From the sequence record PZ452584.1: DNA of 64,000 bases; one strand, given 5' to 3'. Below, piece by piece: positions 5,498-43,237 of this stretch (the stretch's first letter is position 1; the number at the start of each line of letters is the position of its first letter). The position numbers were made by a program, and so were the translations under genes. This stretch comes from a phage. Below the pieces are notes generated by a model. The model was not told the DNA's origin. It was given only the letters and a program-made list of their open reading frames with translations, and did no database searches.

Positions 5498-5887
5498 TTA
5501 ACGATTAAAATCAGCCGCAATTGTTTCCGCAACAATTTGAGCAGCAACAATTAGACGTTCATCTGCATTACCGCAATAATCATCTTCAAGGCGTTCACCA
5601 CATGAAGTCATAATAAATTTAGCACCAGCATTTAAAGATTCTGTCGTATGTTTGCGCATTAGTTCAATCCATTTATCACTCACTTCGCGATCGATAGCTT
5701 CATAATACGCATGACGAGCAGGTGCAGATTTAATTTTGTTCTGAATAACTTCCATTGCGTTATCAGAAAGAGACAAAACCCATGCTCGACGAATTTTATT
5801 TTGGTTTTGTGGATTTGATTCAGAACGCACGTGTTTTGGCTGAATATCTTTTACATCAACAGTATAATTCACAGTAATTTTAGTCAT
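5498..5887 (-). CDS. rpbA: RNA polymerase-binding protein RpbA
   Basis: 129-aa ORF at T4 rpbA position and length. Confidence 0.8.
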
Positions 5888-5896
5888 AATACACCT

Positions 5897-6085
5897 TTAG
5901 TCATAATAATCAGTAACAGTCCAAGCTTCATTTCTATTGGACATTATTTTTGTATATTCTGCTTTAAATGCATTCCTAAGCATAGATTCAGTAACTATAT
6001 GCTCTTCATTAGAAAAATTATTTCTCAGAATATATCGTTTTATTTCAGGAATAGTTAATAGATGCTGTCCAGTTGAATATTCCAT
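5897..6085 (-). CDS. small hypothetical protein (T4 45.2 position)
   Basis: 62-aa ORF between 46 and rpbA. Confidence 0.55.
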   Translation of the reverse strand: MEYSTGQHLLTIPEIKRYILRNNFSNEEHIVTESMLRNAFKAEYTKIMSNRNEAWTVTDYYD

Positions 6086-39834: not shown

Positions 39835-40803
<969 letters not shown>

Positions 40804-40822
<19 letters not shown>

Positions 40823-41292
40823 TCAGTGATAAAGTTATTTAAATTTTGAGCATATTTCTTTTCATCAAAAATCTTTTGCTGTCTGCGTAAACGCCATGGC
40901 ATTTCAATGAACATACGCCATATTCCTGATAATACTGCTGCTGTAAAAATATTAACAAGTATAGTTAAAAGAATCCAATCGCCTATTCTGTCCATTGGAT
41001 TTTTTATAAAAAAGTAAAATACGAATGATGATATAGGAAGACTAATGATATACCACAGAAGAACCTTCTTATCTGTGAACCAATCAGCATTTGTTAACTT
41101 AGCGCGACCATTTTGAATACACACGAATTTATCATCTGTTACAGTAAATGGCTTAGCTGCTTGATATCCCATTCTAAACTCCCTAATTAATCGTTTCTTT
41201 GTATCTTCGGAACAACCATTCCAGTCAACTCTATCAACTGAAATGCCATCATCCCCATCATCTAAATCATACCAGCGAGTTTTTAAAATCAT
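40804..41292 (-). CDS. small membrane protein, tandem-array member 4
   Basis: 162 aa, 2 TM helices, C-terminal FITECRKLK; ATGA start/stop overlaps. Confidence 0.5.
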
Positions 41293-41651
41293 TTAATTTT
41301 CCTACAATCACTCACAAACTCTTTCATTGCTTCATTTTCAATATAAGACATGTAGCTATTATATTCTTTTAATTGTATTTTGTAATCTTTTTTTCTTTGC
41401 CAATTTATTTTAAAATTATCATAATGAAAATATAAAATGATACCAAAGAATGAAAATAATGAAATAATTTTAGTATAGTGAAGTTCACTCCAAACTTCTA
41501 TTATATCTACTGTACCACTGATTTTTAAAATAAAACAGTCAATTAATAGTCCAATAAGACTACCCGTAAGAGCTGCAGCCAACGCCACAGCAAAAATCAA
41601 AAATGACTCAGGAAGCGAATATTTGACTTTATTTAGTTTTGGCTTTTGCAT
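41289..41651 (-). CDS. small membrane protein, tandem-array member 3
   Basis: 120 aa, 2 TM helices, C-terminal FVSDCRKIK. Confidence 0.5.
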   Translation of the reverse strand: MQKPKLNKVKYSLPESFLIFAVALAAALTGSLIGLLIDCFILKISGTVDIIEVWSELHYTKIISLFSFFGIILYFHYDNFKINWQRKKDYKIQLKEYNSYMSYIENEAMKEFVSDCRKIK

Positions 41652-42025
41652 CGTGATTCCTTAACAAATTTCATAATTTCATCAAATTCATATGCAGCAA
41701 GTTTAAGCTGGTGTTCCTTTTTAATCTTTTTACACTGTGCTTTCCAATCACGTACGCGTTTACGATAATGCCTTCCTTGATACCAGTATCCTACCCAATT
41801 TACAGGTACTAATAAAAATGGAACTATTAATGGAAGAATTAGCATTAATACAAGTATTTCGCCAGAATCAATATCAGTCATAACATCTAAAACACCTCCA
41901 ATAATCAATAGAATTACAAATGATATGAGTATAACAGGACCTATTAATACATCAGTAGAAATTATCTGACGCTTTAATTCATACTTTAAGGGTTTACTTG
42001 GAAGATACATTGATGGCTTTGACAT
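41633..42025 (-). CDS. small membrane protein, tandem-array member 2
   Basis: 130 aa, 2 TM helices, C-terminal FVKESRCKSQN. Confidence 0.5.
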   Translation of the reverse strand: MSKPSMYLPSKPLKYELKRQIISTDVLIGPVILISFVILLIIGGVLDVMTDIDSGEILVLMLILPLIVPFLLVPVNWVGYWYQGRHYRKRVRDWKAQCKKIKKEHQLKLAAYEFDEIMKFVKESRCKSQN

Positions 42026-42602
42026 ATTCTCTGCATTCCTTCACAAATTTTTCTAGTAATAAATCGCTTTCAAAATTGGGATTTTCCACGAATTTATCAA
42101 AAAGATCATCAACAATAGTTAAGATATTCTTTTTACTAAGAATACGTTTATTTTCATGCTTCGTTTCAGAATCAACTATAAGAGTAAAGAAATATTTCTT
42201 TCCCTGAAATTTTACCGTAGTATCAATATAAAATAAATTTGACTTTTGTAAATTACGTTTAAACCATGCGTCACTTAAACTATAAACGCCAAGATAATCA
42301 TAATCGTCGTTTAAATAACAAACTGTCCATTCAGGAGAAATGAAATCAGTAAATTCAACATCAAAATCACATGTCAATGAATAAATTGATTCAATACTGT
42401 TAATAAGTATTCCAGGACGTATTAAAGACTTTTTACCTCTGGAAAATCTTCCAGAAAGGCTTTCATCAGTTTCATATGAAGAACCCCAATAATAATTACG
42501 TCCTTCTGCCATACGTTTAAGAGCATTTAGTAATTGGTCTGGAACATCAACCTGTCTTTGGAACTCTTCAAACATTGAATTGAAATCACTTTGCATTTTC
42601 AC
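41994..42602 (-). CDS. hypothetical protein, tandem-array member 1
   Basis: 202 aa, C-terminal FVKECREYV motif shared with downstream genes. Confidence 0.5.
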   Translation of the reverse strand: MKMQSDFNSMFEEFQRQVDVPDQLLNALKRMAEGRNYYWGSSYETDESLSGRFSRGKKSLIRPGILINSIESIYSLTCDFDVEFTDFISPEWTVCYLNDDYDYLGVYSLSDAWFKRNLQKSNLFYIDTTVKFQGKKYFFTLIVDSETKHENKRILSKKNILTIVDDLFDKFVENPNFESDLLLEKFVKECREYVKAINVSSK

Positions 42603-42623
42603 TCCTATTTACTCCAAGTAATA

Positions 42624-42637
42624 GGGGCCGAAGCCCC
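42624..42637 (-). terminator. C(UUCG)G tetraloop hairpin
   Basis: GGGGC-UUCG-GCCCC. Confidence 0.45.
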
Positions 42638-42643
42638 TTATCA

Positions 42644-43237
42644 TTATTTCAGAGAATTAATATATTCCTGAACATCGGCAGAGGTAGTTTCAACCCCAGA
42701 AATATTACCATTAAAGGTTTCAACTCGAGCAAGGGTATCTTCAATATCAACCTTAGTCAGTGCTGCAATTTCAACTACATCATCAGCAGTACTAATTCCA
42801 AGGGCATTTGCTGCACGAGTTTCACGGATATATTCCAATTTAACTGCAAGTTCTTGGCGAGCATCATCTAACTCAACTACTTTCTTGGCGATTTCAATTC
42901 GCATTTCAGCATAACCATCAGCTTTAGTAGTCAGCTGTTCAGCTGTTCGACGATATAGCAAACCGAGTTTAGCATGCATTGTTACATCTTGACCTTCGGA
43001 AAGAAGTTTACGAATTTCACGCTCTTTTGATTCGGCCTGTCGATTCTTTTCGGCAATAAGTTCACGAATACGTTTTTCTTCATTAATAGATTTAACAGAA
43101 GCAGTTTTTAGGTCTTTAATTTTATCAAGTAGTTTTGCTGCTGCGGCAGTATACTGTTCTTCAACAGATAGATTTTTGGCCATAGCAGAACCAAGTTTAG
43201 TGCGAATAAACTCAACAATTTTCTTCAGTGTGTTCAT
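42644..43237 (-). CDS. coiled-coil protein (PspA/IM30-like composition)
   Basis: 197 aa, long heptad-rich helices; ATG with SD AAGGAA. Confidence 0.4.

Follow-up and report, generated by a model that had tools for sequence, protein, structure and literature searches.

A conserved C-terminal tail on dissimilar early proteins of the e.2–e.5 locus in T4-like phages

Why should four neighbouring phage genes, which differ in most other respects, end in nearly the same six residues? The question is raised by e.5, e.4, e.3 and e.2, four consecutive genes in a 64-kb stretch of Tequatrovirus DNA (record PZ452584.1; hereafter the window, meaning the whole of that stretch). A first-pass annotation of this DNA had described four overlapping genes with related C-termini and had explained them by serial duplication of a gene module. 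The overlaps are borne out by the open reading frames (ORFs), all of which lie on the minus strand, and each of the four C-termini does carry a form of the tail as it was quoted. The explanation has fared less well: in nine genera of T4-like phages a tail of the form F-[IVL]-x-x-C-R is found on at least ten protein bodies, soluble or with two transmembrane (TM) segments, that have no detectable similarity outside it. We show here that the tail is maintained as protein and argue that it may serve as a docking tag.

The genes are long-annotated ORFs of T4, the best-studied lytic phage, in which their products have been detected. All five T4 genes from e.2 to e.6 belong to the early RNA class and their proteins were found: the e.4 and e.5 products accumulate early, those of e.2 and e.6 during the middle period and that of e.3 late (PMC9697503 supplement). 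The present analysis adds the tail, its restriction to one locus, its spread over unrelated bodies and its synteny with e.6; within a literature coverage that was incomplete, we found no earlier account of the shared tail, of its exclusivity to the locus, of its spread over dissimilar bodies across nine genera or of its linkage to e.6.

The tail and the proteins that carry it

The tail core F-[IVL]-x-x-C-R ends the products of e.5, e.3 and e.2, and e.4 carries a variant. On the minus strand the core codons lie at 42030..42047 in e.5 (F-V-K-E-C-R, in an end that reads EKFVKECREYVKAINVSSK (LLEKFVKECREYVKAINVSSK)), at 41651..41668 in e.4 (F-V-K-E-S-R, in MKFVKESRCKSQN), at 41301..41318 in e.3 (F-V-S-D-C-R, in KEFVSDCRKIK) and at 40816..40833 in e.2 (F-I-T-E-C-R). 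The e.4 end, FVKESRCKSQN, is a degenerate tail in which the Cys is shifted by +2, and a hydrophobic residue at -3 and a Glu at -2 often precede the core. Translation of the window in six frames gives six instances of the relaxed pattern F[VIL]x[ED][CS]R, four of them at these C-termini, where shuffles give 0.66; the 210 window ORFs contain three instances of the strict core F[VIL]xxCR (0.14 under the null), at the ends of e.2, e.3 and e.5. Among the 489 six-frame ORFs from the rest of T4 the strict core occurs nowhere and the relaxed form is not near any C-terminus, and the tail is therefore exclusive to the e.2–e.5 locus.

The four genes are orthologous to their T4 namesakes by full-length profile matches and by their shared place between e.6 and nudE, and the T4 annotation agrees. 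The first after e.6 is e.5 (41994..42602, minus strand, as are all genes described here), a soluble protein of 200–202 residues that belongs to phrog_2607 (E=5e-109); its start is more likely the ATG at 42596, with GGAG 5 nucleotides (nt) upstream, than the GTG at 42602. It is followed by e.4 (41633..42025; 130 residues; phrog_2604), e.3 (41289..41651; 120 residues; phrog_2330) and e.2 (40804..41292; 162 residues in its intact form; phrog_2203), with E-values across the four that extend to 1e-58. In PHROGs they are listed as 'unknown function' or 'membrane protein', and precomputed Pfam entries exist for e.4 (PF26873) and e.2 (PF26896). Our own Pfam, NCBIfam and PADLOC scans of e.2–e.5 returned no family match, and an exhaustive HMMER search with e.5 against 1.84 billion proteins gave six representative relatives and no distant relative of known function. 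A single-sequence AlphaFold2 (AF2) model of e.5 had a predicted local distance difference test score (pLDDT) of 39.7, too low for use.

Topology was assigned from hydropathy and charge. The claim of three small proteins with two TM segments is clearly right for e.4 (31–49 and 57–75) and for e.2, in which an additional soluble N-terminal domain of ∼77 residues precedes segments at 78–96 and 106–124; it is only partly right for e.3, which has one strong segment (19–37) and a weaker hydrophobic stretch at ∼62–77. No TM segment is found in e.5. In e.4, in e.3 and in the C-terminal half of e.2 a Trp and then a basic cluster follow the second segment, after which come a helix and the tail. These three proteins are predicted to be N-in/C-in with basic C-tails (10–15 Lys plus Arg) and e.5 to be soluble, and all four tails are therefore predicted to be cytoplasmic.

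It might be expected that so regular a sequence is a signal in the nucleic acid. The genes overlap by 32 nt (e.5/e.4), 19 nt (e.4/e.3) and 4 nt (e.3/e.2), and the first-pass annotation was correct that a junction supplies the Shine–Dalgarno (SD) sequence of the next gene: in the window this is AAGGA from Lys-Glu codons or AGGAAA from Arg-Lys codons, and the tails lie 17–26 nt upstream of the next start codon. The AGGAAA of the e.3 Arg-Lys codons is the SD of e.2, whose start overlaps the e.3 stop as ATGA, and e.3 itself starts within the Arg-Cys codons that follow the e.4 core (cgATGc). The conserved element could then be a translation-initiation or coupling signal for the next cistron, or a recombination linker, with the amino acid motif as its by-product, and the crossovers of natural deletions do fall in the junctions. 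We consider this extremely improbable, and what decides the matter is the variation among 23 tails from nine genera (Tequatro-, Mosig-, Gapriver-, Dhaka-, Kanagawa-, Karam-, Marfa-, Biquarta- and Pseudotevenvirus), tallied by codon and by residue. All 23 have Phe (TTT in 13, TTC in 10), then I, V or L; 19 have Cys (TGC in 10, TGT in 9); and 21 have Arg, encoded by AGA, AGG, CGA, CGT or CGG, the remaining two having Lys, so that synonymous turnover extends from AGR to CGN under an unchanged amino acid. In the coupled cases the next start lies 17, 19, 20, 22, 25, 26, 28 or 40 nt from the Phe codon, and the SD is drawn from Lys-Glu, Arg-Lys or Arg-Glu codons or from a separate AAGGGG downstream.

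The tail also persists where it forms no part of the next ribosome-binding site. In Karamvirus AS6 and Aeromonas phage L9-6 the next gene begins further downstream or past an intergenic gap of 30–68 nt, and in these two and RB43 as many as 25 more codons follow the tail or the next gene is similarly removed. The DNA consensus that had been proposed for the junctions, TTTGTnAAGGAATGCAGGAAA, proved loose, matching two of the four within three mismatches. Junction RNA folds no better than its shuffles (z from -0.06 to +0.89), and within the array promoter- and terminator-like signals do not exceed chance (29 promoter-like sites versus 23.2 ± 4.6 in shuffles). No element within a family is better conserved than the tail; just 6 per cent of e.5 columns are invariant over four genera, yet the F, C and R of the tail and the E that follows are all among them. 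Because codons vary freely, the distance to the next start varies and intergenic gaps occur, the tail is kept as protein and selected at the amino acid level, with an opportunistic reuse of its codons as the ribosome-binding site of the next cistron. The earlier remark that conservation extends beyond the SD is upheld in this form, and codon usage and register largely refute a motif that arises as an SD by-product.

Dissimilar bodies and a recurrent neighbour

Serial tandem duplication would derive all four genes from one ancestral module and make the tail its most constrained remnant. For the four genes as a set we think this unlikely. Family alignments, assembled from database homologues together with sequences from the other genera, were compared by hhalign with reversed-sequence and tail-deleted controls. 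The e.3 and e.4 families align with a probability of 66% over 34 C-terminal columns, and they share six N-terminal residues (MQKPKL and MSKPSL, or M(Q/S)KP(K/S)L; 21%); e.3 also has a weak full-length match to the e.4 PHROG (E=0.007), and blastp pairs the two at E=3e-4 without composition correction. The C-terminal half of e.2 has the same architecture as e.3 and e.4, and the junction DNA of e.5/e.4 resembles that of e.4/e.3 into the first codons of the next gene, both of which a common module would explain. Against it, e.3 and e.2 match over 14 columns and e.5 and e.3 over 15, in each case in the tail only, and e.4 and e.2 gave no match. Once the tail columns are removed, no pair rises above its reversed controls save for the six N-terminal residues of e.3/e.4. 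The soluble e.5, at 200 residues, has 12–15 columns in common with the others, PHROGs and Pfam separate the families, and matches among all tail-bearing families are confined to 11–34 tail columns. By hhalign, then, neither e.5 and any other member nor e.2 and e.3/e.4 share detectable homology beyond the tail, and by this measure the four do not form a single family of paralogues. Duplication is plausible for e.3 and e.4, the one pair with the look of true tandem duplicates; the membrane half of e.2 may have arisen in this way too, and for e.5, an unrelated soluble ORFan, duplication is unsupported.

The same pattern recurs outside Tequatrovirus. A 3-kb query around the array retrieved 646 phage records, most at 90–99% identity, and the region is 92–97% identical to Tequatrovirus genomes at the DNA level. 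The other genera were represented by ATK48 (Mosigvirus), TH55, VR7 and VR20-like phages (Gaprivervirus), QL01 and dhabil (Dhakavirus), PEi20 (Kanagawavirus), VAC36 (Marfavirus), AS6 (Karamvirus), L9-6 (Biquartavirus) and RB43 (Pseudotevenvirus). Their tail-bearing proteins range from 94 to 306 residues and match the T4 families over 11–23 tail columns only, being unlike them once the tail is removed; the exception is a QL01 protein that is a true e.2 orthologue. An IMG/VR scan with the e.4-family profile yielded only nine loci, all from genera already sampled.

Directly upstream of e.5 is e.6 (42644..43237), which encodes a conserved all-helical protein of 197 residues, and the gene directly downstream of e.6 bears the tail in eight of the eight genera in which e.6 is in view. 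The tail of this gene reads FVKECREY in Tequatrovirus, FIMECREY in Mosigvirus, FIAECREY in both Gaprivervirus and Dhakavirus, FIKHCRE in Marfavirus, FINYCRG in Karamvirus, FVDYCRR in Biquartavirus and FIHSCKK in Pseudotevenvirus.

Gene loss and neighbouring genes

Membrane members of the array are missing or altered in some phages. About 10% of Tequatrovirus records have e.3 without e.2 (499 versus 448 in the relevant identity bands), and in IME340, CE1 and an IMG/VR contig (L012) e.2 is absent and e.3 abuts nudE. In such phages the sequence is of e.3 type up to GAGTGATTG and of e.2/nudE type from CAGGAAATTAAAATGA, with the e.3 tail as left-hand and the e.2 tail as right-hand crossover partner; the crossover lies inside the Cys-Arg-Lys codons and the e.3 tail becomes FVSDCRKLK. 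The Dhakavirus dhabil lacks e.4 and has a hybrid e.5 tail, FIAECREYAKEVQNGTA, produced by a crossover in the SD-ATG segment that the e.5/e.4 and e.4/e.3 junctions have in common. In UFV10 (L025 3810-4130; P0143) an in-frame e.4::e.2 fusion joins ∼31 N-terminal residues of e.4 to e.2 from its first TM segment to its C-terminus, removing e.3 entirely, the remainder of e.4 and the N-terminal domain of e.2. A Mosigvirus contig (L014 3375-3500) retains an out-of-frame, internally deleted e.3 remnant, MQKPELNLCCLRFSND, in which the tail-coding 3′ end and the junction are kept; the same contig has, ∼2 kb downstream (5644-5949), an ORF of 101 residues with two TM segments that ends NLENFIKECRGK.

The T4 reference itself differs from the window at e.2. 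There the gene (NC_000866 67449-67999) is annotated with 102 residues and is followed by a 160-nt 'gap' before nudE; relative to the intact gene of 162 residues it has two compensating frameshifts, -1 in an A-run and +1 ∼100 nt further on, and its C-terminal tail is still readable in frame 0. By comparison with the window gene this would be a sequencing error or else a pseudogene of the laboratory strain. Taken together, the losses of e.2 and e.4, the fusion, the e.3 remnant and the T4 frameshifts indicate that the membrane members are dispensable and fluid, and the e.6–e.5 pair is retained. The repeated junctions act as crossover points for in-frame loss, which keeps both the reading frame and the translational coupling. 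Since T4 deletes at other short repeats too, the junction is best described as a usable rather than a dedicated recombination site.

The array sits within a conserved order that in the window, as in the T4 annotation, runs on the minus strand ipIII, e (lysozyme), nudE, e.2, e.3, e.4, e.5, e.6. Between e.6 and e.5 is a GC-rich hairpin with a UUCG loop, GGGGCUUCGGCCCC (42621..42641, minus strand), the equivalent of which is an annotated putative terminator in ATK48, and with it begins a single translationally coupled run of the four genes and nudE. The latter, at 40367..40822, is a Nudix hydrolase gene by Pfam (NUDIX, E=2e-13) and by the T4 annotation, and is the last gene coupled to the array. 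Its start is ambiguous. The annotated ATG (40822; MQEIKMKT) lies inside the e.2 Glu-Cys codons (window 40804-40822, minus strand), gives an overlap of 19 nt and lacks an SD; a start at a second ATG (MKTLSAG) would share the 4 nt ATGA with the e.2 stop and would have the AGGAAA of the e.2 tail 7 nt upstream as its SD. Phages without e.2 annotate a shorter nudE of 146 residues.

Several names attached to these proteins call for caution. Some relatives of e.3 and e.4 are called 'sulfurtransferase' at NCBI, an unreliable, propagated name with no supporting NCBIfam model, and one relative is called 'DNA primase', again with no NCBIfam model behind it and apparently in error; proteins with these doubtful names include P0011, P0015, P0054, P0074 and P0077. 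Products of e.6 (e.g. H163) are often labelled 'host specificity protein', a label whose basis is not visible.

In addition, Mosig-, Gapriver-, Dhaka-, Marfa- and Karamviruses have a second tandem array downstream of e.3, composed of two to five small soluble ORFs (51–101 residues) that end W-(V/F/Y)-(S/N/P)-S-S-x-x-C* with the Cys last, as in GGWVSSSSEC*, AWVSSSAMC* and WYPSSC* (L002 3231-4025; L003 2984-4243; L004 3191-4453; L007 3278-4329; L020 4799-5325; L026 4022-4603). It is a separate family with a conserved C-terminal Cys motif of its own, and array ends of the W-x-S-S-x-x-C* form do not occur in the window. The hyperplastic region of Dhaka-, Kanagawa- and Karamviruses also encodes a well-conserved protein of ∼305–319 residues (MMLVIGSRALHH), and that of Dhaka- and Kanagawaviruses a further protein of 228 residues (GWYPAIPGYHHDDVPRPD); these lie at L008 457-1416 and 1722-2408, L009 143-1072 and 1743-2429, and L020 5762-6679, and neither is present at the window locus.

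A proposed docking tag and its alternatives

There is reason to read the tail as a tag by which these proteins dock or assemble, in the cytoplasm, on one common partner, with e.6 as the prime candidate, although our confidence in this reading is evenly divided. What the proteins share would be a short cytoplasmic C-terminal helix ending F-[I/V/L]-x-x-C-R, and not a body. The tag would bring interchangeable early proteins, one of them soluble and several of them inner-membrane hairpins, to the cytoplasmic face of the inner membrane. The DNA that encodes the tail is reused at the junctions as the SD or start region of the next cistron, and its repeats supply microhomology for clean, in-frame gene loss of the kind seen for e.2 and e.4.

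The best candidate partner may be the e.6 product, a conserved protein whose predicted structure is a long-hairpin coiled coil that resembles PspA/Vipp1. A single-sequence AF2 model (pLDDT 74) consists of a long helical hairpin over residues 2–80 and 86–145, and the top ten PDB matches that Foldseek returned for it are all to Vipp1, of the IM30/PspA family, aligned over the full length, a fold match that is not specific. By sequence e.6 has no match in Pfam (E<=1, PspA_IM30 included) or in the PDB, and its hhalign probability against E. coli PspA is 0.2%; that e.6 is PspA by sequence was accordingly rejected. In bacteria PspB and PspC act with PspA, and LiaI with LiaH, as small inner-membrane proteins that bind a long-hairpin protein of the PspA family through their cytoplasmic segments, and by analogy the e.6 arrangement would work in the same way. 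The resemblance is of order and architecture: a gene with a Vipp1-like model followed by small membrane proteins, predicted N-in/C-in, with a common cytoplasmic tail. It does not extend to sequence, as no similarity to PspA, PspB, PspC or LiaI is found; unlike those of PspA and LiaH, the putative partners are several interchangeable proteins encoded by the phage, one of which is soluble. A bolder version, in which e.6 is a phage PspA/Vipp1-like (ESCRT-III-type) protein for the maintenance or remodelling of membranes and F-Phi-x-x-C-R its docking code for e.5, as a conserved soluble partner, and for rapidly exchanged membrane adaptors (e.4, e.3, e.2 and their unrelated counterparts elsewhere), is offered tentatively and is in our estimation unlikely to be correct; we found no relevant report in the literature on phage-encoded PspA or ESCRT-III.

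Several observations weigh against a docking tag read by e.6. Tail genes of VR7, QL01 and PEi20 have no e.6 in the fetched 2.5-kb flanks; in the Dhakavirus dhabil e.6 is present ∼6 kb from its e.2 homologue. With 1107 records (98–99% identical within Tequatrovirus), e.6 is much better conserved and more widely distributed than e.5, e.4 and e.3, for which tblastn finds about 625–676. The UFV10 deletion took place at microhomology in the first TM segment, so that the junctions are not the sole site of deletion. Plain helical docking motifs do not usually hold a single, nearly invariant Cys, which may instead indicate chemistry (metal, redox or modification), and in the e.4 family that Cys gives way to S, I, V or M.

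The Cys has thus to be weighed in its own right. The tails, together or with a partner, could make up a metal or redox centre, or there could be covalent modification of the Cys or Arg; the Cys position is the only conserved Cys-containing element in these proteins, it is followed by Arg nearly throughout, three to four such tails are encoded per T4 genome (e.5, e.3, e.2, and e.4 with its Cys at +2), and the neighbouring array of the relatives has its own terminal Cys. A chemical role of this type is quite unlikely, given a single Cys per chain with no second ligand motif, the tolerance of the e.4 family for other residues and the phages seen with one or two tail genes in the fetched regions, although the near-invariance of the Cys speaks in its favour. 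A tag for degradation or processing, by a host AAA+ protease or by the T4 prohead protease gp21, could instead time or limit the activity of early proteins. It is known that gp21 cleaves behind (L/I)-x-E, for example in the capsid-targeting sequence (CTS) MKTYQEFIAE of the neighbouring internal proteins; the tail has [IVL]-x-E in 13 of 23 cases, the FIAE of the Gaprivervirus e.5 tail equals the end of the CTS at the N-terminus of the window ipIII, and the genes lie between two internal-protein loci. A terminal peptide on unrelated bodies is, moreover, the CTS pattern (PMC2839356). Such a role is very unlikely, and less likely than a chemical one, because the Glu of (L/I)-x-E is not conserved while Cys-Arg is, the hydrophobic pair often being followed by Y, H, G, I, D or S; the motif is at the C-terminus and not at the N-terminus, packaging is unlikely for the three membrane proteins, and F[IV]xE is too short for its resemblance to be significant.

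In concept the closest precedent for the tail is nevertheless the CTS of the ipI, ipII and ipIII loci. In each case a conserved terminal peptide (∼10 residues) is found on many small proteins that are otherwise unrelated, and the DNA that encodes it falls where genes are exchanged. The internal protein (IP) genes occupy the two hypervariable loci of T-even phages that directly flank the present region, and over 30 IP variants with a CTS are known (PMC2839356). The CTS differs in that it is N-terminal, is removed by gp21 and takes soluble proteins to the prohead, while the tail is C-terminal, has a Cys-Arg core and is found on inner-membrane hairpins as well. The locus also recalls the promoter early stem-loop (PeSL) cassettes, in which short conserved sequences bound the accessory genes of hyperplastic regions and mediate insertion, deletion and replacement of ORFs in T4-type phages (PMC2839356, PMC4122927). 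PeSLs are intergenic and combine a sigma70-like promoter, a G/C stem-loop and an SD, whereas the repeat described here lies in coding sequence and is conserved as protein; its junctions are coding overlaps with no excess of promoters and no RNA structure, and they are not PeSLs.

Superinfection exclusion or immunity and membrane-acting regulation of lysis had been suggested as candidate functions. As small inner-membrane proteins with one or two TM segments and charged cytoplasmic ends, encoded near the endolysin gene e, the membrane members do resemble the Imm and Sp exclusion proteins and the class II holins. They differ in having no homology to these in Pfam, PHROG, NCBIfam or PADLOC, and in T4 imm, sp and the holin gene t lie elsewhere; nor did Pfam, NCBIfam or PADLOC place them among Imm/Sp-like or other known defence or anti-defence proteins. 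For a class II holin or antiholin the topology and the charged tail would fit, but the RNA is early and holin t is encoded elsewhere, and the four early transcripts argue against a holin-type role in late lysis.

For five orphan genes of a model phage the docking tag is a specific hypothesis that is cheap to test, and six C-terminal residues, unique to one T4 locus, offer a concrete and mutable handle on e.2–e.5. The repeated junctions illustrate how whole cistrons can be lost in frame without breaking translational coupling. If the tail is a second, C-terminal and membrane-associated tag besides the CTS, it would represent another way in which T4-type phages organize and exchange their accessory genes; and if e.6 were in truth a PspA/Vipp1-like effector, these phages could swap membrane adaptors without altering the effector itself, for example to protect or rewire the host inner membrane against injection by a competitor or against abortive-infection systems that target membranes.

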